The translations under genes and the position numbers were made by a program. The notes below the pieces were generated by a model that worked only from the letters and a program-made list of their open reading frames with translations, searched no databases and was not told the origin of the DNA. Positions 703 to 19,107 of a DNA stretch of 32,000 nucleotides are shown here, piece by piece. Source of the stretch: Mucisphaera calidilacus. GTDB lineage: Bacteria > Planctomycetota > Phycisphaerae > Phycisphaerales > Phycisphaeraceae. The stretch lies in NCBI RefSeq assembly GCF_007748075.1, contig NZ_CP036280.1, positions 420,001 through 452,000 of the forward strand, in the 5' to 3' direction. Every line of letters starts with the position of its first letter. Within the stretch, counting starts at the first letter, position 1.

Positions 703-708
703 CATCAT

Positions 709-889
709 CCTCCCAGCAAAATAAAAGTAATTCCAAGCCTCTCTGACCGGCTCGAAACAGGCCATGCCTCCGTACCTGACAAGCTATCAGTATGCGGTGT
801 ACGCGGCCGTCATGTCGACAGAATTATGACATGATAATTGCATCTTAATAGCACAATATTAAACAATGATCGATGTTCCGTCAATGTCA
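709..889. promoter_or_regulatory. AT-rich intergenic island: 3' end of the giant-gene operon and probable promoter of the downstream secreted-protein gene
   Basis: Positions 822-889 are about 29% G+C by my count (20/68), in an otherwise GC-rich window. Small inverted repeats are present: ATGACAT 826-832 / ATGTCAT 884-890, CATGTC 811-816 / GACATG 829-834, and the palindrome TGTCGACA at 813-820. No clear GC-rich hairpin plus T-tract terminator is visible. Confidence 0.4.
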
Positions 890-3800
890 TTATGGATGCG
901 ATGACGCCTCTTGCCAACGCCCGTAATGCGGATAATCCATCGGGCGAATCACCTTGCCGCCGATTCGCAAGGACGTAAAACGACTGGGAGGCAGCACGCC
1001 GGCCTCGGCCATCTCAAGACTGAGCCGCTCAGACCGTTCGGGCCTGATCTCCCGGGCCGCATCGATGACGTACAGCCAGTCGCTCGAAGGCTGCGCGGGC
1101 CTGAGTGCCTCAGCGAAGGAAAGGGCCGATTCTGCCAGCGAGGCCGTCGGGCTGACGTGCCGCTGAATCGACGTCGACAGCAGGCAGGCAAGCCGCAAAC
1201 GGCTAGGTTCGCCCCCACGAACGGGCTGATCCGGATCAGCAAGCCGATCTAGAAGCAGGGTTCCCAGCTGCTCCGTGGCAGCCGGAGGCAGAGCATGCAA
1301 CAGCAACTCGGGATCTGCGGGCAGCACGCGAGGGTGTGTGCTGTTGAGCAAACGCCCCAAACGCTCCTCCACCACCTCCCATTCGCCCCGAAGGGTCGCG
1401 AGCCGGGTCTCCAGACGCAGGAGTTCTGAGGCGGCCAACGAGGCAGATGCGATCTCGGTCCAGCGGCCGATCTGATCAAGCAGTTGCTGCTGCCTGTCCG
1501 GTGTCAAAGCGGCTGCATGATCAGAAAGCAGCCTAAGGAGGGTCGACGACGGCACATCGACCGGCGTAGGTTGCAGGATCATCCCCAAGTCATGGGTATC
1601 GATCGGCTCGGGCACAGAGATCACCCTCGGCGTCAACCCTGCCCGCTGACGCGCGAGTAACCAGCGTTTGAGTAATTCAGCCCGCTCGGGCCTGTTCAGC
1701 GGGAGGACCTTCAGCAGCTGAGCGATCCGAGCGTCATCCGGTGCGTTGCTCGCTCGCCCCAGCCATGCGGCCAGCGACTCGCCAGCCGCAGCATCCGGGG
1801 TTTCCAGCCTCGACGCCGTGGCAGCAAGCAACCGCAGGTCAAGCAGGTCCGGCTCGTCCTGCTGAGCGATGCGCGCGGTGAGTTCTTCCACGAGTTCTTG
1901 GGTCCGTCCCGCTGCAACGGCCGCGTCGGCCAGGCCCTCGATCAGCCCCGGGACATCGTTGCGGTCCGGCGTCGCCGTCGAGAGCCGCGCCTGGTACAGC
2001 CTGTAAGCAAAGGGCTGAGGCGCCAGCTCTTCCCAGAGTGTTCTGCGTTCAGAAAGTCGCTCCGCCACATCCTGCCGATAGCCCACGATGCCGCCCGGTG
2101 TGGGGGATGACCACATACGCGGGGTGTAGAACCGTCGTTCAAGCTGCGTCTGGTTCAGGTACTGCAGCAACCGCTGTTCCGCAGACTGATGCTGACCGAG
2201 CGACGCACGCAAGGGCAGCGCCTCGATCGCCCCGAGGGTGCGTTCGTCGATCGAGGCGATCTGAAGCGCTCGCTCAGGCGACCCGAGCTGTTGCAACGCC
2301 TGACTCAGCGGGCGGGCCGTCTGCTGCTGAATCACCGACCGGTCATCACGAAGCGGCCAGAGCACATCCGCCATCGCCGGGAACCGATGTGTCTGCATCA
2401 GCAGATCAACCAGCCAGTTGCGCACAACCGGTTCGCCGGACACGCGTGCAAAGGCCTCGAGTGCAAGCTCCGCAGCAGAGGTCTCCATGCCCACGCCAGC
2501 GGCGGCCATGCTCGCCATCAGCAGCTCGTTGACAGCCGCCAGCCCCTGAGCGCGTCGGAGCTCCAGTTGATCCAGCCAGTCGCCAACGTCTGCCCGCAGC
2601 AACAGCGGCTGAGCGGCTTCCGCCAACGCGACCTGATCGGTCGTCAGCGTTGTCTGTGTGGCGAGTTGCCGCATCGCGTCCCTGGCCAGTTGGCTCGCCC
2701 TCGTCAATCGCTCTCGCCCGCCCGCCGCATGACACGCCTGCGCATGGATCACCATCACTGCAGGCTGCTCGGGGTGAAGCCCCAGAAGCGTTCCGCTCAT
2801 GGCCATCGCCAGCTCGGCACCCGCCGGCTGCTCCGACCATCCGCCCCGGCTCAGCATTGTGTAGGGACGAAACTTGTCGAGGGTCGGGACAGGTGTCCGC
2901 TCCACCAGATCGCTGAGGGTGTCACGCAGCGCGGGTGTCGGCACGCCGGCGATCCCCGCCGCGACCGCACGCAGCAGAGACCACCGCTCGGACGGGTCGC
3001 GACGCTCCCAGGCAAGCTCAAGGATGGAGCCTGCCTGCTGCTGACCGAGCAGGTTGATCATCGCGACCAAACGATGCGCAGGCACATCGTCTCTCGTCAC
3101 CGCGTCGATCAACCACCCGGGCATCCTCTCATCACGACCGGCATCCACACTCTGCCACGAACGCGTACGAAGCCAGGCAAGCACCCACGAGGCTTCCTGC
3201 CCCTGTTCCGCGACGTGGCGCAGACGATCGATGACACTCCGCTGATCGGCAGGCTCCAACGCGTGCCATCCGAGCGCCATCAGTTGCCTGAACCGCGCCT
3301 CACTCCGCTGTGCCGCCCGGTCATCCAGGAGGCTCTCGAGACCCGACAGGGTTGCCCGGGCGGTCAGATCCCGCCGCTGCGTTGCCAGTCCCAGCAACGC
3401 GGCACGAACAGCGTGCTCGGTATCCCACGCCGTCGAATCTTCCGTGAGTCGCTCCAGTCGGCGCTCGGTCTCCGCCTTGTCACCCTGCCGGAGTGCCTGT
3501 TCCGATAGGAGCAGGGCGGTTTCGCGCGTGTCTTCCGCGAGTACTACCTCAGACGGATGGAAGGCATGACGCATCCGCTCGATCCGAGCGGTAACCGTTT
3601 CGCTCTCGGCGAACGTCGCGATCAGAACCTCATCGCCGGACCGCGACGCCTCGGCTTGGTTCATCGCCAGAGCGGCAAAGCGCAGGGCATCCGTCGCGTA
3701 CAGCCACCGGGGGAATCGGTCGGCGCGGTCACCCGCCTGGTACAAGCCGGTGCTCAGATCGCCAGCCTGTTCAGCGAGTCGTTGGAACTCGCGAAGCGCA

Positions 3801-6800
3801 CGAGCCCGGTCAGGTTCGTTCAGCGAACAGAAGATCGCCCCCTCGACACATGGCCCGAAATAGGTCTGAATCTCACTGAGATCGCCGGCCACCCGCCGAC
3901 GACGCGTGGAGAGCAGATTGGGTCGCGGCTCATCGCTCGCACGGATCGGCATCCGCGCGAGGAGCACACCGACAGCATCGATGAAGCAACGCTGGGCCTC
4001 CTCCCACCGCCCCAGCTGGGTGTAGAGCGAGCCTTGCCGGTAGAGGAGGCTGACGTCGTCGGGCCGGATCAGCAACAGTTCCTGAATCAGCCGCTGCGCC
4101 ACCTCGGGACGCAGATTCTTCTCGTAACGCTTCGCCACCTGGGGGACGACGTTGTGCTTCTCGCCGAACTGGATCGCACGCTGAAAAGCCCGGTCCGCCG
4201 CACGCTCGTCATGGCGATCCAGGAGCATGTCGCCCAGATCGATCATCACCTGAGGGGGTACGGCATACCCCGTCGCGATCAGGCTCTGTCCGTACACCGC
4301 CGCGAGCCGCGAACGCCCGAGCGCTCGTGACCGCTCGACGCCCTCGCGCAGGAGCGTCGCCGAGCGATCGCCCGCCGCGATCAGCATCGGATTGATCCAG
4401 GACAACGCTGACTCCGTGTCCCCCAACGCCTCGTGCAGATCAACGACCGATCTGAGCAGGTAGGCACGATCAGGATGCTTCGCGGCACGCACCGTCGCGT
4501 AGCGCAACGCCACCTCCAGCAGCGCAGGCGGCGCGTCGAGATTGAGCAGCCCGTCCACACCCACGAGAAACAGGTCATCTTCCTCGGCCTGATCGACGAT
4601 CCGCAGCAGACGCGTGATGGCCTGCTGGCCTCGGCCCGCATCCTGCATCGCCCGGCCCCACAGCAGCCACAGCTCCACCTGCTGCGGGTCTTTCAGGAGC
4701 GTCAGACGGTAACGGTCGGCAGCAGAACCACTGTCGCCAAGCATCGCAAGGATGCCGGCAGCCAGCTCGTTGAGCCGCGCGGGCGGCAGCTCGCCCAAGA
4801 CACCGATCTGCTCGATGGCGTGGCGGGCCGTGTAGAGATCGCCTCGCTCGGCCGCAATCACGGTGCGTTGCTGCCAGTAATCGAGCGCCCGATCAGGATC
4901 GATCGCGATGAGCTGACCGAGCATGTCGTCGGCCAGACGAAGCCGACCGGTCTTGAGATACAGCTCGATGAGCTTCTCTCGAGCCGCTTCGGCGTCGTCG
5001 CCATCATCGGCCGGTGCCAACAGCACTTCCGTGGCCGACACCGGGTCATCGATACGCGCATACAGCGCGACCAGCATGCTCCGGGCTGCACGGTCCTGTG
5101 GGTTGTCATGAACCCGCGACTCCATATCAACGGCCAGACTGCCCAGCTCGGCGGTCTGGGCGGACAGCTCGAGCAGCTGCTGCTCGGCACGCTGACGCAG
5201 GGCCGGCGTCAAGGCGTTCTCCCACAGGTCCAGCCAGATCGCGCGCGCCCGCTCCGGCTGATCGCGCTGCGTGTGCAGCCACGCCAGATACGGGCCCAGC
5301 CTTTGCGCCGAAGCTCGATCAGAACCCTGCCCGAGTCGTTCAGAGAGCAGATCGATGGCCCGGTCCGGCTGGCCGATCTCGATATAAGCATCAGCCAGTC
5401 GTCGCGCGTCGCCATCATCCCCGACCAGGCCCGCGAGTCCGTCAAGGGTCTCCAGCGCCCGGGCCAGACTGCTGTGCTGCGCCTGGTGAGTCGCCCGGGT
5501 CAGTCCCACCCGCAGGCGATCCTTATCGCTGCCCTGATCGGCCAGCAATAAGATCGCCTCGGCAGCATCGTGACAGCCCGAGGCGTCAGCGGCTTCGGCG
5601 CACCAGAGCCGCTCGGAGAGCCCGCGAGCCTGACGGGCCGCCTCAAGAAACGCCTCGGCAGCCAGGTCACGCCTGCCATCGAGTGCCAGCACCTGGCCGA
5701 GACAGGCCTGCCAGAGACTCGAGCCCTGCTCAAGGGCGAGTTGCTCGATCGCCCGGATCGCAGTCCCTCGCGCTTCGGGGGCGTTGGCGACCGCAAACAA
5801 CTCGCGACGGAGCATGTTCGCGTCGTGACGCAGAACGCCCTGATCCGAGGGCCGAGCTGCCTCCGCGATCAGATCAATGACCTCGCTCGACTGTCCGGTC
5901 TGTCGCAGCAATGTGATCAGCGGCCAGAAGCGCTCAGACGGGATCGGACGCTGAACCAGCCAGTGCTTGATCAGTTCCCCTTCACGCCCCGACTCAACGG
6001 CGACCTGAAACTGCATCAGCGCAACAGACTGACGATCACGACGCCGCTCAGCGTGCTGCTCCGCGCGACGCAGCACCTCCATCGCCACGCTCGGGTTGCC
6101 GGCCCGACGCTCAACCTCCGCGAGCGTCATCAGATCCTGCGCCCCGGGTGTTTCCAGATCGTTCAGCAGGCCGATGGCACGGCCGTGATGGCCACGAAAG
6201 GCCAGGTAATGACCGACCCAGCGACGACCCGCCTCGTCGGGCAAGGTGATCGCGTCCTCCGCGGGATAAGACTGCGTTTCCGGCGACAACGCATACAGGT
6301 GCAGGAGCAGAGCCGTCCGCTCCTCCGGCGCTGCTTTCGCCAAGGCCTCCTCAAGGACCATGCCCGCCTCTTCAGGACGACCCGTTGCCTGAAGATGCCG
6401 CGCGAGGATGGTCAACTCAGCCACACCCGCCTCGCCAAGCCGACGGGCTTCCAGAGCGAGATCGATGCATCGCCCGGACAACCCGGCCTCGTCGGCCAGC
6501 GCGATGGCGATGTGCCGCTCTCCCGAAACCACCAGGCGCACGATCTGCTCATCGAGATCCAGATCATTCTCCAGCGAATCGATCAGCACCTGCTCCGCGC
6601 GTTCAAGAGTCGCCTCGGCGCGAGCACCCTCAGGCATCGAGTCAGCGATTACGCCCGATGTCAACATGCAGCAAATCAACGCCGACGGCACAACGCTGCC
6701 AGCCCTCTCACGCGCAACGAGTGAACGCAGCCTGCCCGGGAGGCTGAACCGGCGTATCGCCAACTCGCTCAGAACACCCAGCCACGCGAGAACCATCAAC

Positions 6801-9121
6801 CACAGCGTCGGATCCACGACACGCCATGGCGTGGGCGCGACGTCTGCCGAGGCCGGCGACGTGATGACCTGTTCGTGGGCCATCCTGCCGGGATGCTCCT
6901 CCATCCACAGACCCGCCACACCCAGCGGCTCCGCGCCCGGGGTCAGGGCTTCGAGCCTGAACGAACCGGTACGCCCGACCAGCAGGCGGCCGCTCCAGCG
7001 TCCGGGGCTCATCACATCCGGGATAGTCTGGCTGATGATCCGGCCCTCCCGATCCAGGCACCGCAGGATCAACGCGTCGTCGGCCGGCAGTGGTTTACCC
7101 CCGGTCCACCTGAGGTCACAGGACAGCCCCAACTCGACGCGTGTCGTATCGATGGCGATGCGCCGCTGCAGCTGCGGGGCCGCGAGCGAACTCATCCATT
7201 GACGCAGCCAGCGAGCCGTCTCGTCACGCTCATAGACGGAGTTGGCCAGCGGTCCGGTCAGCGATCCGGCCCAGACACCGGCACGCCCTCGCCCGTAACG
7301 CCAGTGCACCGCGAGCGGTTGATGACCGTCGATCGTCGCGCTGATGTGCCCCGTCGGCTTCTTCTCAAGACGCATCGCGTCCTCAGGATTAACCGGGGCC
7401 GTCAAGCCGATCGGCCTGCTGCCGCTGCCTCGAAACTGTGCCTGACTCTCTGATCCGCCTGGCGGGCTCTGCATCTGCTCGTCGATCTGCTTGAGGACGA
7501 TCTCGGGCAGGCGGAACCGGTCGGGTGCCTGGTAGGCGTGGCCGCCTCCCCACTGCGCGAGCGAGGTCAGGAACTGCGAGTGCTGCGCGGGACCGACAAG
7601 GACCGTCGACGTCGTGATCCCCGCCCGCCGCATCCGCTCGATCTTCTCGCGGAACGGCCCGGTCTCCACACCGCCATCCGTCAGGATCAGGACGTGCTTG
7701 AAACGCGTGCGCGTGTTCAGCAACGCGTAGTAAGCCTCGTCGACCGCGGGCAGGATGATCGTCCCGCCCCCGGGCGTCAGACGGTGAAGCCCACGCTTGA
7801 TCTCGATCTGATTCGACGCCGGCTGAAGCGGTGCGGCCCAACGCCTGGAGCCGTAAAACTCGACGATCCCGACACGGTCATGAGGCATCAGGCGACGGAT
7901 GGCGAACTCCGCAACCTGCTTGGCCAGTGGCATCCGAGCGCCACCCATACTCCCGCTGGTGTCAATGATGATGACAAGGGAAACACTCGGATCACGCTGC
8001 TCGATCGTCTGACGGTCGTAGGCCGGCAGCACCCCGGCCAGCGGGTCACGGCGTCCCGGCAGACCCTCCGGCCCGGCCAGCGCCAGCAGCCCCACGCCGT
8101 CACGCGCCGCTTCGGCCAGAACCGCCTGCGTCTGAGCACCCTGCCCGCTCAGCACAACGACAAGCTGTACCTGCTTCAGCGACGACGCGGTCAGGCCCTC
8201 TGCCCGCCTGCCCGTGACAAGCGCCGAGGCGCCCCAAAGCGAGCGCAGCCGGTCGACGCTGTCGGCGATGGCCTCCGCCTGATCGGCATGACCGACAACC
8301 GAGATCCGCATCGGCTCGAGTACCACCATCGCAGCGCGGGCTTCTCGCTGGATGTTGCCCCGCACGTCGACGTGCTCCGCGGCCAGCACATACAACCCCG
8401 GCCGTTCCGGTGCCGTCAGTCGAACCGGGAACGAGGCTCGTTCAGGCACCAGAGTCACAGAACGCCGCGTCTCATCGACGCCCTCCACACGCACAAGAAG
8501 CTCATCCCCCTCCGACACACCGCCATCAAACATGGCGCTGACCACAATCTCGGAACCGGGCAGGGCGTTGTTCGGCGTATCGAGAACCAGCCTCAATGCC
8601 TCTCCTGCAGAATCCCCATACCCACGCAATCGGATACCCTCGGCCGGCAGGCGATGGAGCGACAGATCAAGACCCGCTATCCAGTTCTCGGGCATCCAGA
8701 GTTCGGACGCGCCCGGCGGCAGCAACGCCGATGCAACCGCAAGCACGTCGCCAGGACGTTCACGCCCGAAGGCGGTTGTCCCGTCATCACCCCCAGGCGG
8801 GCGGCTCCAGTTCCAGCGCGAAGCAGGCTCAATCCTTAAGTCTCCCTCCGCGACAGTAACCCTGATCGACGGCTCTGAGGGAATCTCGGCCGCGTCAGAG
8901 CCCGTCGTGAGAATGACCGCAGAGGAAACAGCCGTCTCCGCAGCAAGCCACCTCGGCCCCGCCGCCGCGAGCGCTAACGCGAGGATCACCACGCATCGAA
9001 CGATCAGCAGCAGAACCGGCCTGATCCGCCAGCGTTGCGATGACCCGCGTCGCCACCACCACGCAGCAGGCAAGGCGCTCAGCAGCAGCAGACACAACCA
9101 GACGGGGGCAGCCAACCACAT
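890..9121 (-). CDS. Giant (2743 aa) membrane protein: BatA_N-like double-TM anchor, VWA domain with complete MIDAS, third TM helix, then ~1950-aa TPR-like helical repeat region
   Basis: Uninterrupted 8.2-kb ORF. N-terminus MWLAAPVWLCLLLLSALPAAWWWRR...VLLLIVRCVVILALALAAAGP gives two TM helices. The VWA domain reads VSLVIIIDTSGSMGG (DTSGS at 7949-7963)...TPGGGT...VLILTDGG. A TM helix TLWLMVLAWLGVLSELAIRRF lies at ~6746-6816. The remainder is Leu/Ala/Arg/Glu-rich with TPR-type segments, e.g. YLKTGRLRLADDMLGQLIAIDPDRALDYW. The start lies 1 nt after the stop of the upstream gene (TGAGATG). Confidence 0.9.
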   Translation of the reverse strand: MWLAAPVWLCLLLLSALPAAWWWRRGSSQRWRIRPVLLLIVRCVVILALALAAAGPRWLAAETAVSSAVILTTGSDAAEIPSEPSIRVTVAEGDLRIEPASRWNWSRPPGGDDGTTAFGRERPGDVLAVASALLPPGASELWMPENWIAGLDLSLHRLPAEGIRLRGYGDSAGEALRLVLDTPNNALPGSEIVVSAMFDGGVSEGDELLVRVEGVDETRRSVTLVPERASFPVRLTAPERPGLYVLAAEHVDVRGNIQREARAAMVVLEPMRISVVGHADQAEAIADSVDRLRSLWGASALVTGRRAEGLTASSLKQVQLVVVLSGQGAQTQAVLAEAARDGVGLLALAGPEGLPGRRDPLAGVLPAYDRQTIEQRDPSVSLVIIIDTSGSMGGARMPLAKQVAEFAIRRLMPHDRVGIVEFYGSRRWAAPLQPASNQIEIKRGLHRLTPGGGTIILPAVDEAYYALLNTRTRFKHVLILTDGGVETGPFREKIERMRRAGITTSTVLVGPAQHSQFLTSLAQWGGGHAYQAPDRFRLPEIVLKQIDEQMQSPPGGSESQAQFRGSGSRPIGLTAPVNPEDAMRLEKKPTGHISATIDGHQPLAVHWRYGRGRAGVWAGSLTGPLANSVYERDETARWLRQWMSSLAAPQLQRRIAIDTTRVELGLSCDLRWTGGKPLPADDALILRCLDREGRIISQTIPDVMSPGRWSGRLLVGRTGSFRLEALTPGAEPLGVAGLWMEEHPGRMAHEQVITSPASADVAPTPWRVVDPTLWLMVLAWLGVLSELAIRRFSLPGRLRSLVARERAGSVVPSALICCMLTSGVIADSMPEGARAEATLERAEQVLIDSLENDLDLDEQIVRLVVSGERHIAIALADEAGLSGRCIDLALEARRLGEAGVAELTILARHLQATGRPEEAGMVLEEALAKAAPEERTALLLHLYALSPETQSYPAEDAITLPDEAGRRWVGHYLAFRGHHGRAIGLLNDLETPGAQDLMTLAEVERRAGNPSVAMEVLRRAEQHAERRRDRQSVALMQFQVAVESGREGELIKHWLVQRPIPSERFWPLITLLRQTGQSSEVIDLIAEAARPSDQGVLRHDANMLRRELFAVANAPEARGTAIRAIEQLALEQGSSLWQACLGQVLALDGRRDLAAEAFLEAARQARGLSERLWCAEAADASGCHDAAEAILLLADQGSDKDRLRVGLTRATHQAQHSSLARALETLDGLAGLVGDDGDARRLADAYIEIGQPDRAIDLLSERLGQGSDRASAQRLGPYLAWLHTQRDQPERARAIWLDLWENALTPALRQRAEQQLLELSAQTAELGSLAVDMESRVHDNPQDRAARSMLVALYARIDDPVSATEVLLAPADDGDDAEAAREKLIELYLKTGRLRLADDMLGQLIAIDPDRALDYWQQRTVIAAERGDLYTARHAIEQIGVLGELPPARLNELAAGILAMLGDSGSAADRYRLTLLKDPQQVELWLLWGRAMQDAGRGQQAITRLLRIVDQAEEDDLFLVGVDGLLNLDAPPALLEVALRYATVRAAKHPDRAYLLRSVVDLHEALGDTESALSWINPMLIAAGDRSATLLREGVERSRALGRSRLAAVYGQSLIATGYAVPPQVMIDLGDMLLDRHDERAADRAFQRAIQFGEKHNVVPQVAKRYEKNLRPEVAQRLIQELLLIRPDDVSLLYRQGSLYTQLGRWEEAQRCFIDAVGVLLARMPIRASDEPRPNLLSTRRRRVAGDLSEIQTYFGPCVEGAIFCSLNEPDRARALREFQRLAEQAGDLSTGLYQAGDRADRFPRWLYATDALRFAALAMNQAEASRSGDEVLIATFAESETVTARIERMRHAFHPSEVVLAEDTRETALLLSEQALRQGDKAETERRLERLTEDSTAWDTEHAVRAALLGLATQRRDLTARATLSGLESLLDDRAAQRSEARFRQLMALGWHALEPADQRSVIDRLRHVAEQGQEASWVLAWLRTRSWQSVDAGRDERMPGWLIDAVTRDDVPAHRLVAMINLLGQQQAGSILELAWERRDPSERWSLLRAVAAGIAGVPTPALRDTLSDLVERTPVPTLDKFRPYTMLSRGGWSEQPAGAELAMAMSGTLLGLHPEQPAVMVIHAQACHAAGGRERLTRASQLARDAMRQLATQTTLTTDQVALAEAAQPLLLRADVGDWLDQLELRRAQGLAAVNELLMASMAAAGVGMETSAAELALEAFARVSGEPVVRNWLVDLLMQTHRFPAMADVLWPLRDDRSVIQQQTARPLSQALQQLGSPERALQIASIDERTLGAIEALPLRASLGQHQSAEQRLLQYLNQTQLERRFYTPRMWSSPTPGGIVGYRQDVAERLSERRTLWEELAPQPFAYRLYQARLSTATPDRNDVPGLIEGLADAAVAAGRTQELVEELTARIAQQDEPDLLDLRLLAATASRLETPDAAAGESLAAWLGRASNAPDDARIAQLLKVLPLNRPERAELLKRWLLARQRAGLTPRVISVPEPIDTHDLGMILQPTPVDVPSSTLLRLLSDHAAALTPDRQQQLLDQIGRWTEIASASLAASELLRLETRLATLRGEWEVVEERLGRLLNSTHPRVLPADPELLLHALPPAATEQLGTLLLDRLADPDQPVRGGEPSRLRLACLLSTSIQRHVSPTASLAESALSFAEALRPAQPSSDWLYVIDAAREIRPERSERLSLEMAEAGVLPPSRFTSLRIGGKVIRPMDYPHYGRWQEASSHP

Positions 9122-9122
9122 C

Positions 9123-10805
9123 TCAGGCGATCCGCCCTTTCTCGTAGAGCCACCACCCGACCGCAGCCAGAGCCAGCGTGATCGCCACCAACCATGGCCG
9201 TGTACTCAGGCTCCAGCCCCGATCCTCCGGAGTCGTCGCGAAAGCAGAGTCGGACGCACGATCGAGCAGATTCGAGACCGCCGGTGAACCGGGAGCCGTC
9301 AACGCGTTATGACCTCGGGCGACGGGCTGCTCCCGCCACCAGACCGCATCATCGTGCGCACGCTCTGTCGAGAGTGTGACTGGCTCCGGCCCCAGTTCCA
9401 GCAGATCGGAGACCGCACGGCTGAGCATGACCGCGAAACCACCACTGGCGTAAGCGGAGGTCTCCGCCGAGAACCACGCCTCGTGCAGCATCAGGCCTGG
9501 CGACGAATCTCCCGTGCCCGAAACCCACGCGAGCGGCACAGCGTCCAGCATGACCCCGGCCTGCTCAGGCGTCGCTCCATCAGCAGCGGTCAGGCTCGCG
9601 GGCAGCCAGACATCATCGAAGTCGAGGTCTTCGGCCCAGCCCACGCCCAACGCCCTGATCAGACCCGTGGATTCCTGGTCTGACGATGACACGGGCACAA
9701 CCTCGATCCGTGCACGCCTTGCCGCAGGATCATCACCGCCCGTGCTCAGCCGAGTCTGACCGTTGCCGACTGCCCGATCCGTTTCCTCAACGACACACCC
9801 CGCCGCAAGCAGCGCAAGACGCAGCGCGTCGGGCACATCCGGCCCAGGCGAAGCGGTGATCACCGGTCTGTTTGGCAGAGTGAACGCAAGTGTGTTGTCC
9901 GCTTCCACGCCATCGCCGGGCATCTCAACCCTCACTGCAAGACCCTGCCCGACCGCGGGTAGTTCGAGTTCGCGCGTGAAGACAGCACCACCCTCCGACG
10001 CGGCAATGACCTCCTCCAGCAACACCGCGCCATCAGCAACATCGGTCACCGTCAGACGCAGCGAGCCCGGATCCGTCAGCCACGAGCCGACACGCACAGC
10101 AAGCGTCCCCCGCTGGCCAAGAGGTCGATCAGCCTGCCACCGGGCGCTGATAATCGCTGCGTTGCTGCGTCGCTCGCCGTAGGGACGCACCGTCACGACT
10201 CCCGACAACGCCAGGCTCGATGCGGCATCACGCCAGCGATCCCCGGCGGGTGTCACCACGACGATCTGTGCATCCATGCCGAGCATCCGCCGGACACGTT
10301 CGGCCAGACGCAGCGAGGGACCCGCCGGCGACACAGAGTCGGCGGGAAGTGAACGCAGGCGACGCAGCGCACGCCCGTCCACCTCGCCGGGTCCTCGGAT
10401 CAGCCGAGGCGTCGGTGCCGCCGCGATCATCGCCAACGCGCTGTTATGGGTCGGCATGGACGCCAGGACAGCCTCTTCAAGACCTCCCGCCGCGTCAGCG
10501 GGAACACCGTTGTCAATGACGATCACCACCGGCCGGGTCTCAGAACCGGACCAGATCGGGCCGGCCAACGCCAGCCCGCTGAGCAGCAGTGCGGCCAGCA
10601 GCAGCGCAAGACTCAGCCACTGCGCCGGGCGACCCATCAGAGACCGGCCGTCGACCGCGGCCGACGCCTCAGCCCAGAAGAGTGTGGTCGCCACACGAAG
10701 ACGACGAGGACGCGGCCGCAGCAGGTGCAACACCATCAGCAGGCTTGCCGCTGCCGCCACGAAGCTCAGCACCACGCCCCACGGCACGCCGGTCCACAGC
10801 CACAT
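9123..10805 (-). CDS. BatA_N (N-terminal double-transmembrane domain) protein with a C-terminal TM anchor and a VWA-like core lacking MIDAS
   Basis: N-terminus VVLSFVAAAASLLMVLHLLRPRPRRLRVATTLFW...WLSLALLLAALLLSGLALAGPIW matches the aerotolerance-regulator N-terminal / TIGR02226-type pattern. RPVVIVIDNGV sits where a VWA DxSxS would be. The C-terminal TM is WLVAITLALAAVGWWLY. Its ATG overlaps the DUF58 stop by 1 nt (TGATG at 10803-10807). Confidence 0.8.
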   Translation of the reverse strand: MWLWTGVPWGVVLSFVAAAASLLMVLHLLRPRPRRLRVATTLFWAEASAAVDGRSLMGRPAQWLSLALLLAALLLSGLALAGPIWSGSETRPVVIVIDNGVPADAAGGLEEAVLASMPTHNSALAMIAAAPTPRLIRGPGEVDGRALRRLRSLPADSVSPAGPSLRLAERVRRMLGMDAQIVVVTPAGDRWRDAASSLALSGVVTVRPYGERRSNAAIISARWQADRPLGQRGTLAVRVGSWLTDPGSLRLTVTDVADGAVLLEEVIAASEGGAVFTRELELPAVGQGLAVRVEMPGDGVEADNTLAFTLPNRPVITASPGPDVPDALRLALLAAGCVVEETDRAVGNGQTRLSTGGDDPAARRARIEVVPVSSSDQESTGLIRALGVGWAEDLDFDDVWLPASLTAADGATPEQAGVMLDAVPLAWVSGTGDSSPGLMLHEAWFSAETSAYASGGFAVMLSRAVSDLLELGPEPVTLSTERAHDDAVWWREQPVARGHNALTAPGSPAVSNLLDRASDSAFATTPEDRGWSLSTRPWLVAITLALAAVGWWLYEKGRIA

Positions 10806-11722
10806 CAGCGCACTCCCGCAGCAACAGCGCCGAATTGGAGTCTGCCCGGGCCAGCCAGACGCCCCAGCTGCGTCAGCACCGATCGGTCCGCGTCCAGCGT
10901 GATACGCCTGCCCATGACCGCGCGAGCCGCCGCCTGCATCGAGCGATCGAATCGGCCGTAGGCATCGCGGTAGGCACGCATCATCACCGCCGAGGCATGA
11001 ACGTACAGACGCTCCGCGGTCTCGCAGTCCTCGACCTCGACCGATCCCTCAACACCCGGGTCACGATCCGAAGCCCGTGTCAGCTGGATCAACGCGGGCA
11101 GGTGCCCCGTCTCCTTGATCGCCGGCACCCAGTCGTCAACCCCCGCGGGATCAAAGAAATCCGAGATCACCACCATCAGCAAACGCGGGTGCCCCGCCCG
11201 CCGAACCGCATCGAACACCGGTGAAAGCCGCGTCTGGGCACCCTGCTTCGCTCGCCAGCCCGAGACGCTGTGGGCGAGATCCGAGAGACGCGCACGCGAG
11301 TTCGCGGCCACCGGTGCGCCAAGCAGTCTGCCATCGGCGAAGGGCTGGACATGCACTCGGTTGAGTTCTTCAAGCCCCGCTGCCGCGATGGCCACAGCGG
11401 CCTGCTGACCCGCGAGCAGGCGCGGAGAAGCCTCGAAACCCATCGAAGCGCTGCAGTCCAGCAGGATCAGAACCCCCAGCTGGTGCGACTCGTCGTACAG
11501 GCGGATGAACAGGCGACCGCTGCGCTGATACAGCGGCCAGTCGATCCGCCGCGGGTCGTCGCCCGTCACGTACGGCCGGTGATCGCGGTAGTCCAGGCCC
11601 AGCCCCTCCATCGGCGCCGGCGCCTCCGCCTTGCGCGGCAGAGGCCGCAGACCCAGCGCACCCAGGCGCAGCCTCCGACAGGCGCTGAGGAAACGCTCAT
11701 CGATCACGCCGGAATCAGGCAT
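10805..11722 (-). CDS. DUF58 domain protein (VWA-like partner of MoxR ATPases)
   Basis: GLDYRDHRPYVTGDDPRRIDWPLYQRSGRLFIRLYDESHQLGVLILLDCSASMGF is the DUF58 signature. I prefer the ATG at 11722 (MPDSGVIDERFL...), which overlaps the MoxR stop as ATGCCTGA (8 nt). The ORF-track start at 11800 would overlap MoxR by 86 nt. Confidence 0.88.
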   Translation of the reverse strand: MPDSGVIDERFLSACRRLRLGALGLRPLPRKAEAPAPMEGLGLDYRDHRPYVTGDDPRRIDWPLYQRSGRLFIRLYDESHQLGVLILLDCSASMGFEASPRLLAGQQAAVAIAAAGLEELNRVHVQPFADGRLLGAPVAANSRARLSDLAHSVSGWRAKQGAQTRLSPVFDAVRRAGHPRLLMVVISDFFDPAGVDDWVPAIKETGHLPALIQLTRASDRDPGVEGSVEVEDCETAERLYVHASAVMMRAYRDAYGRFDRSMQAAARAVMGRRITLDADRSVLTQLGRLAGPGRLQFGAVAAGVR

Positions 11723-12776
11723 CGAACGTGCTCTCGGAAACCGTCTCCAAAATCTCCCCGACCAGACCGTCGACGTCGTGGCCGTCGGCGAGAGCCTCAA
11801 AACGCAGGACCATCCGGTGCCTGAGCACCGGCAACGCGATCCGGCGCAGGTCGTGCACGCTCAACGTGAATCGGTTCTCCAGCAACGCCTGCACCTTGCC
11901 CATCAGCAACAACGCCTGCCCCGCTCGGGGGCTGGCCCCCATGCTGACGTAACGGTTGACGCGATCCGTCGCATAACGCGAGCCGGGCTGGGTCGCCATC
12001 ACCAGCCGCGTCGCGTAACTCAGGATCTGATCGCTGGCCGCAACCTGCCGCACCGTCCGCCGCATCTCCAGCAACCGCTCTCCCGAGCAGACGTGCCGGA
12101 TCTCGGGCATCGCCTCGCCGGTGGTCCGCTGCAGGATCGTCGCGTACTCGCCCTCCTGCGGGTAGTCGACCAGCAGCTTGACCATGAAACGATCGAGCTG
12201 GGCCTCGGGCAACGGGTACGTGCCCTCCTGCTCGATGGGGTTTTGTGTCGCCAGAACCATGAAGGGGTTGGGCAGGTCGATCGTGTCCTTGCCCAGCGAG
12301 ACCTGACGCTCCTGCATCGCCTGCAGCAGGGCCGACTGCGTCTTGGGCGTCGCACGGTTGATCTCGTCCGCCAGCAACAGGTGGGTCACGATCGGCCCCG
12401 GCTCCAGCTGGAGCTCGAGACCACCGCCCGGCTTCTCGATGATCGCGTGCGTGCCCGTGAGATCCGTAGGCATCAGGTCGGGCGTGAACTGAACCCGCGC
12501 AAAATCAAGGTCCACCACCTCACTCAGCGTCCGCACCAGCAGCGTCTTGCCCAGGCCCGGCACACCCTCGATCAGGATGTGGCCATCGGCCATCAGCGTC
12601 GAGAGCACCAGGCGCACAAGGTCCGCATGCCCGACAAACACCTTGCCGATCTCCGCTTCGATCGCCGTAAACGACGCGATGAACTGATCGACCTGCTCGG
12701 TGGCAAGCCGGGTGGCCTCGTCGGTGGTTGGTGAGAGATCCGATGAAGAAGGGCTACTGCTCATGGTCACAATCAT
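11715..12776 (-). CDS. MoxR-family AAA+ ATPase
   Basis: Walker A is GHILIEGVPGLGKTLL (~12543-12566). Walker B and sensor read HLLLADEINRATPKTQSALLQAMQERQVS. The downstream LPEAQLDRFMVKL and ASPRAGQALL motifs are typical of the MoxR/RavA-like family. The gene is followed by DUF58 in the canonical order. Confidence 0.95.
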   Translation of the reverse strand: MIVTMSSSPSSSDLSPTTDEATRLATEQVDQFIASFTAIEAEIGKVFVGHADLVRLVLSTLMADGHILIEGVPGLGKTLLVRTLSEVVDLDFARVQFTPDLMPTDLTGTHAIIEKPGGGLELQLEPGPIVTHLLLADEINRATPKTQSALLQAMQERQVSLGKDTIDLPNPFMVLATQNPIEQEGTYPLPEAQLDRFMVKLLVDYPQEGEYATILQRTTGEAMPEIRHVCSGERLLEMRRTVRQVAASDQILSYATRLVMATQPGSRYATDRVNRYVSMGASPRAGQALLLMGKVQALLENRFTLSVHDLRRIALPVLRHRMVLRFEALADGHDVDGLVGEILETVSESTFDA

Positions 12777-12787
12777 ATCTCAGGGGA

Positions 12788-14221
12788 TTACAGGCCGGAC
12801 GACGCACGCAGGGCCTCCAGGTATTCAAGCATGAAACGTGTCTCTCGCTCGAGTGGCGGCTTTCCGGGCGAGTCCTCCGGGCCCTCGGTAACCGCCATCG
12901 AAGCCGGATCGACACGCGACGGATCCAGCGGAGCCGCTTTCGCCTGCCGGTAAGTCCGCTTCACCGGGCCGGGTCGGGCTTGCCCCTCAACCAGCTCAGG
13001 CGTCGGCACGCCCAGCAGCATGGCAGATGTTCCTCGCGATTTTTTAACGGGCGTCGGGCCGCCACGCCCTGCGCCAGGCGGACCCTTGGGGCCGCTGATA
13101 CCCAGTTGCCGCGAGGGCGCAACATTCCGGTCCCTTGCCGACGGCTGCGTCCCCCCACGCTGCTGCTGATCCTGATCCGGGTCCTGATCCTCCTCGCCCG
13201 AATCGGCATCATCCAGCGCGGACACGTCGCCTGGCGTCGTCCGGATGCCATTCTTCCACGCGTGTGTCACACCAAACGACGACCCCTTGCTCTGACCACC
13301 CCCGGACGCCGCCGCACCCGCCGAGGCCGATCCCGCCGCCGGCCTGCGTTCCCGAGACGAGGCGGAGGACGAACGCTCCTGCTGCCGGTCAGCAGCACGC
13401 CGCGACCCCGGCGCGCTCGGGTCCGGGCTGCCCGTCGATGACGATGGACGAGCCGATGAATGAGCACCGGACCCGCCGGTCCGACCCACACCCGATGACG
13501 AGGCCTCCGCACGCTCATCGGCAGACATCACCGAAGACGACCCACGATCTCGCCGAGTCCCCGATGCCACACTCGGTTCCGCGGCCTGCCGCGCGGAACG
13601 AACCGGATCCAACCCCGCCCGTGGCAACGCCGATTCACCGGCCACCACCACAGCTCCGGACGTGTCGACAGCCGCAGAGGAGGAAACACCCTCCGGGACC
13701 CTTGAAGGCAAGGCCAGCAGCACCAGCGTCAACGCTAGCGCACCCAGCCCGAATCGCCAGGGGACCTTCAGCGGTTTCGGCCTGAGCCGAAAATCAGACA
13801 GACACACGAGTGTCTCCAGACCCCTCGCGACCGTCGCACGCTCGAAAAGCTGAAACGAACCTTCTCGCTCGAACTGCAGCGCACTGGCAAGGAGGTTGTG
13901 TGTCTCGGCCTGCGCGTCGACGCGCTCCGCGACCTCCGCAGCACACGGCCGACGCCTTGAAGCCAGCAGGCACCAGGCGATCCAGAACGTGACGACGATC
14001 ACAATCAGCAGCACACCAACCAGCGGGTCGGACGGTACCGCCGCGAGCGGCAGCGCCAGCAGCGGGACCACACTCGTCCGAACGATTCGGGCGACAGACC
14101 GTTGACGCTGATAGACCTCGCGCCACGGCTCCAGTGACGACTCGATCTCGCCGGGCAGTCGTCGATCGTGCGGAGCACTCAGGGACGGGTTGTCAGTTCG
14201 TTCAACGTCCATCGTTTCCAT
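12788..14221 (-). CDS. Membrane protein of unknown function with a long Ser/Gly/Ala/Arg/Asp-rich low-complexity C-terminal region
   Basis: TM helices are VVPLLALPLAAV...VGVLLIVIVVTFWIAWCLLA and FGLGALALTLVLLALP. About 270 aa of low complexity follow (…SSSGVGRTGGSGAHSSARPSSSTGSPDPS…GEEDQDPDQDQQQRGG…). It shares strand and spacing with the operon: its stop lies 11 nt before the MoxR ATG. The ATG at 14221 overlaps the upstream gene by 43 nt, so the exact start is uncertain. Confidence 0.65.
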   Translation of the reverse strand: METMDVERTDNPSLSAPHDRRLPGEIESSLEPWREVYQRQRSVARIVRTSVVPLLALPLAAVPSDPLVGVLLIVIVVTFWIAWCLLASRRRPCAAEVAERVDAQAETHNLLASALQFEREGSFQLFERATVARGLETLVCLSDFRLRPKPLKVPWRFGLGALALTLVLLALPSRVPEGVSSSAAVDTSGAVVVAGESALPRAGLDPVRSARQAAEPSVASGTRRDRGSSSVMSADERAEASSSGVGRTGGSGAHSSARPSSSTGSPDPSAPGSRRAADRQQERSSSASSRERRPAAGSASAGAAASGGGQSKGSSFGVTHAWKNGIRTTPGDVSALDDADSGEEDQDPDQDQQQRGGTQPSARDRNVAPSRQLGISGPKGPPGAGRGGPTPVKKSRGTSAMLLGVPTPELVEGQARPGPVKRTYRQAKAAPLDPSRVDPASMAVTEGPEDSPGKPPLERETRFMLEYLEALRASSGL

Positions 14222-16446
14222 CCCAGGCAGGACCCGTCAGCGTCCTCCCACACGGCAACCAACGCAGACACCCTCGAATCAATCGGATAAGGCATGTCCC
14301 CGGCAGACACGCCGTCCGACCTGTTCTCACGCCCGGTCGGAACGTTCCATCGCAGCACCGTTTCAGTCGACAAGGCCGAACCCGATTCTAGCGAGTCAGC
14401 CAGCGCGTACGTCTGCTCCGCACGCACCGGCCAGTCATGAAACGCCATCGATGACGCGCCCGGCACAAAAACCACCTGCTCCACGAGCAATAGCCTCAGC
14501 CTACCCCTGTCCGGTCGCGCTGACCGATCCAGTTCGACCTCAAAATCAAGCGCCTCCGGCCTGCTCGCGGCCTTGACCGCCAGCCAACTCAGGTCGTCCT
14601 GCTCCTGAGGCGCCTCGGCCCGCACCACTTCCGCAACGAGCTGTTCCAGCCACGCCTCACCACCGCGGTCTGCCGAGATCGCCACGGGTCGGCCATTGAT
14701 GAATACCTGGGGTCCCTCGGCATCACCCGGACGATCCGCACGACCAACCGACGCCGGACTAATCAGTGGCGGCTCGAAGTGATAAGCCACCAGTCCGAAC
14801 TGCGAGAACATCTGGCTCAGCGCCGACCAGCCCGCGAGCACCGGCTCTGACTCCGCCGCAGCCGCATCGATGAACAACTCAATCAGAGGCCGTGCCGACA
14901 CGGACAGCCGCTGCGCCGACGCCGGTCGCCTCCCGATGGTCTCGACCTGACCCTCGAGCAGCATCCGCATCTGGTGCGCGGTCAGACGCTCGTGCAACGC
15001 CGGGTCACCCTTCAGCCGCCGGAGCCCGTTGTACGCGCCGATCGGCGCTTCATCGGCCACCGCGCTCTGCGCGTAGCGCGACCACGCACGGACCGGCTGA
15101 TCGGTCACCTCGTACAGGCGGCCCAACCACAGGTTGATAAAGGGGTCCTGTGGCAGGCCGAACCGTGCCGCGATGAGCTGACGCCGGGCGCTCTCGTAAT
15201 CCCGACGCAGCAGAGCGATCAGCCCTCGTCGGGCCAGCACGTGGTGTACCGCGACACCGTCCAGATCGTCCCTCGTCCACGCCGCCGCCACCTCCAGCGC
15301 AGCCTCCGCCACGTCGTAAGCTCGTTCGGTCTCTCGGTCGAGTGCGATCGCGTCATCCGCCGCACGCACCAGCGCCATCGCCCGCCCGTTCACGGGCAGC
15401 GACGAGCCGAGCAGCGTGAAGGCACGCCGCGCAGCCGCAACATCCATCGGCCTCGCGTCGAGACGCATCCGGACCAGGGTCCTGCACGCCTGCTTGACCT
15501 CCGACTCGGGCAACCCGTTGCGGATCACCGCCTCGACCGCATCCGCATCGGCCCGCGATCGTGCCGCAAGATAAGCCTGCACAGCACCCGACGTCTCCGC
15601 CCGCGCACGCGGGATCAGAACCAGACGCTGGTTCGGCACGTCGATCACCAGGTCCATCTTCAGCAGCAGATCGGTGCCGAGATTGATGTCCGGCTTCGGG
15701 TCAGGCAGCACCGAGAAATCACTCGGCTCCAGCACCACGTAACGCGACAGGTTGATCCCCCCGACACTGACACGCTCCAGCTGACCATCCGGAACCCCCA
15801 GACGCTCCGCCGTGTTCACGTCGATGCGGCTGTTCCGTTCGCCGCTCGCCAACCGGATACGCAGTGACTCATCCCCGGGCCCCCGCGCCGTGATCCAGTA
15901 GCCGTAGCCCCGCGCCTCGAAATCGATCGCCGCGGAGGCCGCTCCCGCCTGCAAAGCACGCTCGAACACCTCAGCGCCCTGCCCGTGGACGATCTCCCCG
16001 GACACCAGCGAGAGACTTGTTACGCCACGAAACGCCGGCAGGCCCAGCACCGCCGCCGCGGGTATCTCGTCAAGCTCATGAGCGTTCTCGCTGCTGAAGG
16101 TCTCAATGGGCTCGAGCTCCACGGGAACCGCCGTGGTCGACGGCCACGAGAGATTCTGGCCCGGAAACGAGATCGCGACCTCCCCGGTGCCCGTCATCCC
16201 CAACGCCGCCGCGATCCGAGGATGGATCAACGCCGGCGCCCGCACGCCCACGTCAATCACCGCGTGGCTAGGGATACGCACGTCATCGACCCGCAATTCC
16301 ACCAGCACGCAGCCCATGCCGTCGATGGTCCTGATCACCAGACGCTCGGCCTGGGCCAACGCGGCCGACGGCAACACGCACAACACCAGACACACCACTC
16401 GCCACGCACACCACCGCCCGCTCCGAGATAGACGCTGCTTTGCCAT
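14179..16446 (-). CDS. Secreted protein: tandem retropepsin-like (clan AA) lobes with degenerate catalytic motifs, helical repeat region, and a C-terminal domain of unknown function
   Basis: I prefer the ATG at 16446 (MAKQRLSRSGRWCAWRVVCLVLCVLPSAALAQA/ERL, a signal peptide). Lobe 1 reads HAVIDVGVRAPALIHPRIAAALGM...AAVLGLPAF. Lobe 2 reads LRIRLASGERNSRIDVNTAERLGV...INLGTDLLLKMDLVIDVPNQRLVLI. Both follow the bacterial Asp_protease_2 pattern xxDTGAxxxxI...ILGxDxL, but with DVG and ASG in place of DTG. The middle is Ala/Arg-rich and helical. Confidence 0.75.
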   Translation of the reverse strand: MAKQRLSRSGRWCAWRVVCLVLCVLPSAALAQAERLVIRTIDGMGCVLVELRVDDVRIPSHAVIDVGVRAPALIHPRIAAALGMTGTGEVAISFPGQNLSWPSTTAVPVELEPIETFSSENAHELDEIPAAAVLGLPAFRGVTSLSLVSGEIVHGQGAEVFERALQAGAASAAIDFEARGYGYWITARGPGDESLRIRLASGERNSRIDVNTAERLGVPDGQLERVSVGGINLSRYVVLEPSDFSVLPDPKPDINLGTDLLLKMDLVIDVPNQRLVLIPRARAETSGAVQAYLAARSRADADAVEAVIRNGLPESEVKQACRTLVRMRLDARPMDVAAARRAFTLLGSSLPVNGRAMALVRAADDAIALDRETERAYDVAEAALEVAAAWTRDDLDGVAVHHVLARRGLIALLRRDYESARRQLIAARFGLPQDPFINLWLGRLYEVTDQPVRAWSRYAQSAVADEAPIGAYNGLRRLKGDPALHERLTAHQMRMLLEGQVETIGRRPASAQRLSVSARPLIELFIDAAAAESEPVLAGWSALSQMFSQFGLVAYHFEPPLISPASVGRADRPGDAEGPQVFINGRPVAISADRGGEAWLEQLVAEVVRAEAPQEQDDLSWLAVKAASRPEALDFEVELDRSARPDRGRLRLLLVEQVVFVPGASSMAFHDWPVRAEQTYALADSLESGSALSTETVLRWNVPTGRENRSDGVSAGDMPYPIDSRVSALVAVWEDADGSCLGWKRWTLNELTTRP

Positions 16447-16659
16447 CGACAGCCAGTCTAAACGTGTTCGTCGAACCGTTCTGCCGCACCCAGCCAAACG
16501 CCCGCAGACAACGAAAAACCGGCAGACTTTAACCCCTTGCGCTTTGCCTGCCTTCACTCACGCGAACAGCCCGAACGCACGGCAACGGATGTGTTCAACG
16601 TTTCTTGACTATAGGACCTTCCCCACCGATCTACGGACCTGTATACGGGAGCACGAGAA
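16447..16659. promoter_or_regulatory. Divergent intergenic region between the MoxR/VWA operon and the c-di-GMP cassette
   Basis: It separates two head-to-head operons. A TTGACT -35-like hexamer lies at 16605-16610. The direct repeat GGACCT occurs at 16614-16619 and 16635-16640 (21-bp spacing). GGGAG lies upstream of the ATG at 16660. No experimentally defined promoter consensus was applied. Confidence 0.35.
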
Positions 16660-18213: not shown

Positions 18214-18252
18214 CCACGGCGAACACAACCCTCCATCAACAGGAGCTACGCC

Positions 18253-18594
18253 ATGCACACAACAAACCAACGACAGAGTCAGCGCACCCGACCTTCGGCC
18301 CGATCCTCACGCTGCACCGTGAGAGGCAAGGGGCGCGAAGTCAAAGCCGTCATCACCGACTTCTCCGACACCGGGCTGGGCGTCCGGCTCCAACCCGAGA
18401 AGGCTCTGCACGTGGGCGACATCATTCAGGTCGCAGCACGCCCGCGAGACCTGCCCACCAAGGCACGCATCGTAAGGATCCACACGACGGCGCAGGACGA
18501 CCCACGACAGGCCATCATCGGATGCTCGTGGGCAAGCTCGAATGATCGACGTCAGCGACGTATGCACGGGCGGATGCGCCCCTGCCACGCCTGA
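18253..18594 (+). CDS. Small stand-alone PilZ domain protein (putative c-di-GMP receptor)
   Basis: RTRPSAR contains RxxxR, and DFSDTG (DxSxxG) follows about 17 aa downstream, the canonical PilZ spacing. The protein is 113 aa. AGGAG lies 7 nt upstream of the ATG. Confidence 0.8.
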   Translation: MHTTNQRQSQRTRPSARSSRCTVRGKGREVKAVITDFSDTGLGVRLQPEKALHVGDIIQVAARPRDLPTKARIVRIHTTAQDDPRQAIIGCSWASSNDRRQRRMHGRMRPCHA

Positions 18595-18634
18595 AGAACA
18601 CCATCAATCCCGCACACAACAGAGAGGAACCACC

Positions 18635-19009: not shown

Positions 19010-19107
19010 ATCTCTGAATCAACCAATTCGCGTAGGTCAACTCGCGACACGGACGCTTTGTTGCCGATGACGTAACGGTCGTTGCTTAGGGGCAATGGAG
19101 CAGCGTG

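Follow-up and report, generated by a model that had tools for sequence, protein, structure and literature searches.

A giant fused VWA–TPR protein of Mucisphaera calidilacus and its place in a Bat/MoxR-like gene cluster of the Planctomycetota

The reverse strand of a 32,000-nt stretch of the Mucisphaera calidilacus genome (NZ_CP036280.1, positions 420,001 to 452,000; the whole stretch is referred to as the window) contains an open reading frame (ORF) for a giant protein of 2743 aa and 300.9 kDa. We show that two neighbouring and functionally linked genes are fused in this giant, one for a membrane-anchored VWA protein and one for a tetratricopeptide repeat (TPR) scaffold, which many related bacteria encode separately. 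It is the last gene of a tightly packed string, in which neighbouring genes abut or overlap, and which we judge to be an uncharacterised, Planctomycetota-wide variant of the Bat/MoxR envelope system. To our knowledge, MoxR-DUF58-VWA (Bat/cmd) clusters are widespread and have no agreed function or mechanism. The periplasm of Planctomycetota is enlarged and remodelled and their envelope is unusual, so that a periplasmic solenoid of about 1900 residues would be a plausible structural element and a specific gene for planctomycete cell biology. No concept is overturned by these findings, and the giant's function is one that we infer.

Fused and split forms of a VWA–TPR pair

The ORF runs without interruption, in agreement with the original prediction made from the bare sequence. 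The encoded protein matches the NCBI entry "VWA domain-containing protein [Mucisphaera calidilacus]" of a 3,486,541-bp genome record at 100% identity. Three orthologues of 2738–2750 aa align over 99–100% of its length at 47–49% identity, which argues that the reading frame is under selection and is not an assembly artefact. As other species carry split versions, one might suspect that a frameshift or an assembly error had merged two genes here. This is very unlikely, and we give it next to no weight: the identical sequence stands in the 3.49-Mb genome record, fused forms recur among 134 cluster representatives and 37 species representatives (Mb-scale contigs among them), and the junction is conserved and collinear. 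The giant has no specific family in NCBIfam, and the species description of M. calidilacus mentions only another giant gene, of 13,493 aa (PMC8882080).

When 1.84 billion cluster representatives were searched exhaustively with the conserved helical part of the giant (aa 1001–1720), 412 proteins matched at E ≤ 1e-3, 192 of them at E ≤ 1e-30. The assignable matches listed belong to two architectures, the others being fragments. Fused proteins have 2600–3300 aa with the helical core at about residue 1000; stand-alone ones have 2000–2500 aa with the core at about residue 230. Among 348 retrieved proteins, 134 combined the VWA and helical cores, 92 had the helical core alone and 122 were VWA-only proteins of about 830 aa. 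In a scan of one genome per GTDB species, the helical core was encoded in at least 203 genomes, of which the best 80 were used for taxonomy and architecture. Nearly all of these 80 are Planctomycetota (Phycisphaerae, Sedimentisphaerales, Pirellulales, Planctomycetales, Brocadiaceae and Rohdeia mirabilis). A few metagenome-assembled genomes among them are labelled Verrucomicrobiales, Verrucomicrobiia, Proteobacteria or Paracoccaceae; these labels could reflect binning or labelling errors or a real spread beyond the Planctomycetota.

The original prediction had proposed to survey whether orthologues are split or fused, and both forms do occur: 37 of the best 80 loci carry a fused gene, 36 have a separate VWA ORF directly upstream, five end with the contig and two could not be resolved. 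Neighbour-joining on the core gives 181 of 190 proteins a nearest neighbour of the same architecture and requires at least about nine changes between fused and split forms. Since the two forms are about equally common and have been interconverted repeatedly, we argue that the VWA protein and the solenoid form a stoichiometric (1:1) pair. The similar frequency of both forms also amounts to a natural experiment, which points to an exported TPR partner. Size and fusion had been put forward as an undescribed architecture. Indeed we found no curated Pfam or NCBIfam family and no paper for the giant VWA–TPR architecture, and literature searches with MoxR, DUF58, Planctomycetes and Planctopirus yielded no description of the cluster; the giant is, however, not singular, given the numbers of fused proteins and species above.

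The seam between the two parts can be located by alignment with the split orthologues. The ORF and the elements at the seam are:

890..9121, minus strand: whole ORF, fused VWA membrane protein and TPR solenoid (ORF calling, homologue comparison)
6749..6811, minus strand: third transmembrane (TM) helix, TM3, aa 771–791, ending in the invariant RR790–791 (hydropathy, alignments, AlphaFold2 (AF2) helix 772–791)
6704..6748, minus strand: Arg-rich loop aa 792–806, predicted to be cytoplasmic (alignment with split orthologues)
6644..6703, minus strand: fourth hydrophobic segment aa 807–826 (AGSVVPSALICCMLTSGVIA), relic of a Sec signal peptide, now internal (hydropathy, homology)

In 97 of 103 stand-alone VWA proteins, the chain stops shortly after the RR behind TM3, at a median distance of 11 aa, and split helical proteins start with a classical Sec signal peptide, e.g. 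MTMLRDQSRTWIVVLGLFAVAASSPLNVVFA|KKDK. Among 69 complete stand-alone helical proteins, 57 pass a strict signal-peptide heuristic and about 66 look signal-peptide-like by eye. In the giant, the loop aa 792–806 unites what are two pieces in split species, the C-terminal tail of the VWA protein and the n-region of the TPR protein's signal peptide, and aa 807–826 take the place of that N-terminal signal peptide. Nearly all fused proteins (132 of 134) have the same succession of TM3, invariant RR, positive loop and, at a median distance of 12 aa beyond the RR, another hydrophobic core. Their junction loop averages 4.0 K+R against 0.29 D+E, and the 30 residues past the second hydrophobic core are net acidic.

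Within aa 792–826 of the giant, the features of a Sec signal peptide can be recognised, namely an n-region RFSLPGRLRSLVARERAG, an h-region with a Kyte-Doolittle value of 1.8 and a c-region V-I-A|D, so that export is predicted and cleavage may occur. At the possible signal-peptidase site, V-I-A|D of the giant is V-N-A followed by A or S in the three closest orthologues. Instead of a permissive cleavage pattern, we tested for A-Q adjacency: the dipeptide follows the hydrophobic core about 2.3-fold more often than in shuffled sequences, in fused (73 versus 32 expected) as well as split proteins (32 versus 13.4 expected). The comparison with split orthologues thus shows that aa 807–826 derive from the signal peptide of a formerly separate TPR gene.

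Architecture of the two parts

The remaining elements of the giant, from N- to C-terminus, are:

8957..9115, minus strand: N-terminal double membrane anchor, TM1 aa 3–21 and TM2 aa 35–55 (hydropathy; AF2 helices 6–25 and 33–54)
8597..8956, minus strand: first alpha/beta domain aa 56–175, degenerate here (AF2, low confidence)
8291..8593, minus strand: beta-sandwich aa 177–277 (AF2, predicted local distance difference test (pLDDT) score about 80–93)
8027..8287, minus strand: alpha/beta (flavodoxin-like) region aa 279–365 (AF2)
7499..7984, minus strand: VWA domain aa 380–541 with intact metal-ion-dependent adhesion site (MIDAS) (Pfam, conservation, Foldseek)
7172..7447, minus strand: beta/alpha region after the VWA domain, aa 559–650 (AF2; PF07090 matches in homologues)
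6902..7159, minus strand: second beta-sandwich aa 655–740 (AF2)
3047..6643, minus strand: TPR-type alpha-solenoid aa 827–2025, high model confidence (AF2, Foldseek)
3962..6121, minus strand: conserved helical core aa 1001–1720, within the solenoid (phmmer, alignments)
1922..3046, minus strand: continuation of the repeat region, aa 2026–2400 (hhalign versus aa 1001–1360, probability 91.7%, E 7.6e-7)
893..1921, minus strand: poorly conserved C-terminal ~340 aa, aa 2401–2743 (profile comparison)

An AF2 model of aa 1–830 was built on 63 stand-alone homologues (pLDDT 76, predicted TM-score (pTM) 0.65). Together with hydropathy, which places N-terminal hydrophobic helices at aa 1–21 and 35–55, it bears out much of the domain order of the original prediction: the double-TM N-terminus, the beta-rich and flavodoxin-like sequence before the VWA domain (now seen as the beta-sandwich and the alpha/beta region), the VWA domain with an intact MIDAS, and a third TM helix, which had been placed at about aa 768–792. 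The loop between TM1 and TM2 (aa 22–34) is rich in Arg, with five R and no acidic residue. The anchor had been called Bat-type, which holds as a resemblance and no further: BatA_N (PF07584) has no Pfam match in the giant at E ≤ 0.1 and none in eight stand-alone homologues at E ≤ 0.01.

According to phmmer comparison with 119 homologues, two collinear cores are conserved, at aa ~300–650 and ~1000–1720. The first includes the VWA domain, which Pfam PF00092 matches at aa 382–541 with E 5e-15 and 56.6 bits (gathering cut-off 23.8). Of its MIDAS residues D387-T-S389-G-S391, T454 and D482, the five D387, S389, S391, T454 and D482 are invariant among 57 fused and 64 stand-alone aligned homologues. 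In profile score, DxSxS + T + D residues and fold, the giant conforms to the VWA/MIDAS pattern, from which metal binding is predicted. Foldseek retrieved generic VWA structures for this module, including BatB of B. thetaiotaomicron (3ibs) and an aerotolerance-related protein of B. fragilis (4jdu), with TM-scores of 0.65–0.66, and sequence searches of the PDB likewise gave generic VWA matches only (BchD 2x31, E 1e-5). A first MIDAS-like site directly after TM2 seems to have been lost in M. calidilacus: aa 72–76 (window 8894–8908) read TTGSD in the giant, and D-x-S-x-S in 53 of 64 stand-alone and 33 of 57 fused homologues.

The regions flanking the VWA domain may belong together. In homologues, GATase1_like (PF07090) matches after the VWA domain, with profile positions ~171–245 of 247 alone, i.e. 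the C-terminal third; the giant itself has no Pfam match to PF07090. As the profile is covered just at its end, downstream of the VWA domain, this domain looks in the models as if inserted into a GATase1-like fold (aa 279–650, window 7172–8287), and the AF2 alpha/beta regions 279–365 and 559–650 are compatible with such a split fold. From the PF07090 matches in homologues, aa 279–365 are probably its N-terminal half.

The helical part was modelled for aa 826–2025 as an all-helical structure (pLDDT 87.2, pTM 0.73) of about 66 helices, mostly of about 10–18 residues and joined by short turns. For this model, Foldseek ranks long TPR scaffolds highest: the IFT-A complex (8bbg_D and relatives), Ski3, Ctr9, the TPR domain of OGT and Naa15, with E 2e-12 to 1e-6, TM-scores of 0.11–0.24 and 10–16% identity. 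Low TM-scores are expected for flexible solenoids. With these eukaryotic giants (IFT-A TTC21B/IFT139, Ski3, Ctr9, OGT, Naa15), its best structural matches, the protein shares a helix-turn-helix solenoid and the character of a protein-protein platform; this is likeness of fold class and not homology, and the giant is bacterial and predicted to be periplasmic. Pfam TPR matches in the giant are weak and scattered (aa ~990–1717), and the best match of the helical part in a PDB sequence search had E 0.017. By hhalign, aa 1001–1360 and 1361–1720 are internally homologous (probability 98%).

The original prediction had assigned some 1950 aa to TPR-like repeats. This holds for the alpha-solenoid of aa 826–2025 (AF2, Foldseek) and, through repeat homology, up to aa ~2400 (hhalign), that is for about 1570 of the 1917 residues after the membrane region; it does not hold for aa 2401–2743, where profile-profile comparison revealed no TPR or other similarity. 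Moreover, judging by its sequence conservation, the solenoid is not a generic one, as it has its own conserved core with the family-specific motifs EEDDLFLVGVDGLLNL (aa ~1513–1528) and VPPQVMIDLG (aa ~1621–1630). Across homologues, the near-invariant forms of these motifs are DDLFxVxVDGLLN and VPPQVxxDLG.

The gene cluster and its relation to Bat and cmd operons

The giant had been expected to work with a MoxR ATPase, and this association is borne out by the genes of the same string, AAA_3 and DUF58 among them, in a neighbourhood kept at every homologous locus examined. Upstream of the giant, the string consists of:

9123..10805, minus strand: 560-aa operon partner, double TM at the N-terminus and one TM at the C-terminus (ORF, BLASTP)
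10805..11800, minus strand: operon partner, DUF58 protein (Pfam E 1.8e-23, BLASTP)
11715..12776, minus strand: operon partner, MoxR AAA+ ATPase (AAA_3; Pfam E 5.4e-60, BLASTP)
12788..14221, minus strand: 477-aa operon partner, containing hydrophobic segments and low-complexity sequence, conserved in position (ORF, BLASTP)
14179..16557, minus strand: 792-aa operon partner, N-terminus resembling a signal peptide, conserved in position (ORF, BLASTP)

In order of transcription, the six or seven genes thus encode an exported protein of ~800 aa, a ~500-aa membrane protein, MoxR, DUF58, a ~560-aa membrane protein, the VWA protein and the giant TPR protein. At every locus examined, the same cluster ends either in a giant or in a VWA gene plus a helical gene of 2134–2280 aa. 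All four stand-alone VWA proteins examined are directly followed by a helical protein of this size in the same cluster. BLASTP identified orthologues of all five upstream genes, in the same order, in five other loci, and the MoxR plus DUF58 arrangement is conserved in seven other loci. The 792-aa and 477-aa partners (window 12788–16557) match no family in Pfam, NCBIfam or PADLOC; the latter has a long stretch rich in Ser, Ala, Gly and Arg. The 560-aa partner has a sub-threshold BatA_N match (19 bits versus a cut-off of 25.9). Together with the helical core and its DDLFxVxVDGLLN motif, the ~800-, ~500- and ~560-aa partners make four unannotated protein families in the cluster, which concern at least 203 species-representative genomes. 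As called, the DUF58 ORF starts with TTG and overlaps the MoxR gene by 86 nt; translation probably begins at the Met at aa 27 instead, because alignments with homologues begin at aa 31–37.

What links the cluster to the Bat operon and its spirochaete homologues is MoxR (AAA_3) and DUF58 upstream, the double N-terminal TM of membrane proteins, the MIDAS-bearing VWA domain, a VWA fold matching the BatB structures 3ibs and 4jdu, and a TPR component (BatC/BatE in Bat, the solenoid here). Fusions are not foreign to Bat operons either: PMC3557215 reports a batB-batC (VWA–TPR) gene fusion from Leptospira biflexa, and also fused bat coding regions from Borrelia burgdorferi, Spirochaeta thermophila and Francisella tularensis. 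On the other hand, the planctomycetal giant lacks a Pfam match to BatA_N; the NCBIfam model for Leptospira BatA (NF047508) scores 19.3 bits against a cut-off of 380, and none of the six cluster proteins matches BatD or BatE (SH3) in Pfam or NCBIfam. By sequence, the cluster is therefore no member of the Bat system, although MoxR and DUF58 do stand in the same gene string. The VWA domain here lies within a ~715-aa module that contains two beta-sandwiches and a putative GATase1-like fold; the TPR part comprises about 1900 aa with its own conserved core; VWA module and solenoid core are distinct families, in the present sampling essentially confined to Planctomycetota; and there are two additional conserved upstream genes of no known family. 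A further relative is the MoxR-led operon RL3499–RL3502 (cmdA-D) of R. leguminosarum, the domains of which are conserved with bat loci (PMC5700661), where no giant TPR component is reported.

In view of the MoxR and VWA components, one could also regard the cluster as a MoxR-VWA "ternary" conflict or defence system of multicellular bacteria. Such systems occur in planctomycetes (PMC7159879), and the MoxR protein also matches PF20030 (bpMoxR) with E 8.5e-14. Yet its AAA_3 match is far stronger (E 5.4e-60), and the Pfam search detected no beta-propeller, effector or other defence domain. The syntenic occurrence in at least 203 species-representative genomes, with the best 80 nearly all from Planctomycetota, fits a housekeeping function. 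We rejected the defence reading, to which we assign a very small probability, for want of a third component (VMAP, iSTAND, FtsH-like or beta-propeller), of an effector and of a relevant PADLOC match.

Topology, proposed mechanism and surroundings of the cluster

The original prediction had counted three TM helices and concluded that VWA module and helical region lie on opposite faces of the inner membrane, with coupling across it and one face touching MoxR. TM1, TM2 and TM3 are real, and a cytoplasmic solenoid would be an obvious contact surface for MoxR and DUF58. The fourth segment, which had been overlooked, contains P, S, T, G and C, is moderately hydrophobic and has no confident structure in AF2; all this would suit the three-helix count. 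As this segment follows TM3, however, the claim of opposite faces is unsupported: it recurs in 132 of the 134 fused homologues, with a strongly positive loop before and an acidic region after it, the A-Q signature of the c-region is kept, and the separately encoded orthologous solenoids begin with Sec signal peptides. We consider an arrangement on opposite faces improbable. Because of the positive-inside rule, the homology of the fourth segment to signal peptides and the experimentally determined orientation of the Bat-type protein BB0173, whose VWA domain faces the periplasm (PMC5700661), VWA module and solenoid are most likely both periplasmic, in keeping with hydropathy. Two short Arg-rich loops would then be the only cytoplasmic parts of the giant.

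According to our proposal, the N-terminal 806 aa form an inner-membrane protein with its N-terminus outside. TM1 and TM2 would be linked by the cytoplasmic Arg-rich loop and followed by a periplasmic module of ~715 aa, composed of two beta-sandwiches and the putative GATase1-like fold with its MIDAS-competent VWA domain. TM3 would bring the chain back to the cytoplasm, and past the short Arg-rich loop the signal peptide of aa 807–826 would restart export, delivering a solenoid of ~1900 aa and 212 kDa to the periplasm, where it may stay tethered by the fourth segment or be freed by signal peptidase. On the outer face of the inner membrane, the VWA module would hold the solenoid in place, by the covalent link of the fourth segment or, once this is cleaved, non-covalently by MIDAS binding. 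The giant, the paralogue-like 560-aa protein with its double TM and the two family-less upstream proteins may make up a periplasmic envelope scaffold. In line with proposals for Bat and cmd operons, MoxR and DUF58 would aid its assembly or remodelling from the cytoplasm. The loop at the invariant RR790–791 is a candidate contact for the cytoplasmic ATPase. We infer topology, binding partners and envelope role of the giant; the last from the cell-envelope and morphology defects reported for R. leguminosarum RL3499–RL3502 mutants (cited in PMC5700661). Chaperone-like roles in the maturation of dedicated complexes have been proposed for MoxR ATPases (PMC3893208). As a whole, the account of two fused last genes of the cluster, both parts being periplasmic and serving as a MoxR/DUF58-dependent envelope scaffold, appears to us reasonably probable.

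Several points weigh against it. The topology is supported by hydropathy, the positive-inside rule and homology to split orthologues, and the family is known here from sequences and predicted models. TM3 and the fourth segment of the giant are merely moderately hydrophobic (Kyte-Doolittle values over 19 residues of 1.71 and 1.80, respectively), the AF2 model has pLDDT < 50 for aa 808–830, and the permissive signal-peptidase pattern is not discriminating (132 observed versus 115 expected). Furthermore, a periplasmic site of both parts leaves unexplained how the cytoplasmic MoxR and DUF58 proteins act, as is the case in all Bat-type systems.

The account leaves room for the giant being a polyprotein: signal peptidase I would cut after V-I-A (about aa 826) and separate a VWA anchor with four TM segments from a 212-kDa solenoid that is free in the periplasm, as in the split species. 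The small residues at positions -3 and -1, in V-I-A|D of the giant and in V-N-A|A or S of its three closest orthologues, agree with this, as do the equal A-Q enrichment in fused and split sets and the repeated fused/split interconversion (at least about nine events in the neighbour-joining tree), which points to fusion being neutral for function. Behind a TM hairpin, however, an internal signal peptide is not always within reach of signal peptidase, enrichment of the broad cleavage pattern is not significant, and cleavage at V-I-A|D is itself predicted from the sequence. We regard processing as a tentative option; if it is true, the giant would be a possible case of an internally processed bacterial fusion protein. 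An extended version, in which the cleaved, membrane-anchored VWA receptor, the free solenoid and four family-less partners form a Planctomycetota-specific periplasmic scaffold with assembly controlled by MoxR/DUF58 through the RR loop, is rather unlikely in our view.

Some observations concern the surroundings of the cluster. In five homologous loci, an extra conserved gene of ~350 aa without family precedes the cluster (positions ~570–2090 there); it is absent from the window. Scans of the whole window with Rfam and tRNA models revealed no RNA genes. Downstream of the giant, window 1–890 has a lower G+C content (0.586) and contains four sigma70-like matches on the minus strand versus 0.4 expected; searches of it for terminator-like sites, Rfam families and tRNAs gave nothing. 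The coding-strand GC skew is +0.08 to +0.18 in all six cluster genes and -0.07 to -0.24 in all nine neighbours on either strand (window 890–31957), and the plus-strand skew changes sign at the convergent gene boundary 24680/24710. Divergent from the cluster, window 16660–21102 (plus strand) encodes a response regulator with GGDEF and HD (HD-GYP-like) domains, followed by a GAF-PAS-PAS histidine kinase. Two-component genes lie near the cluster in several homologous loci, too.

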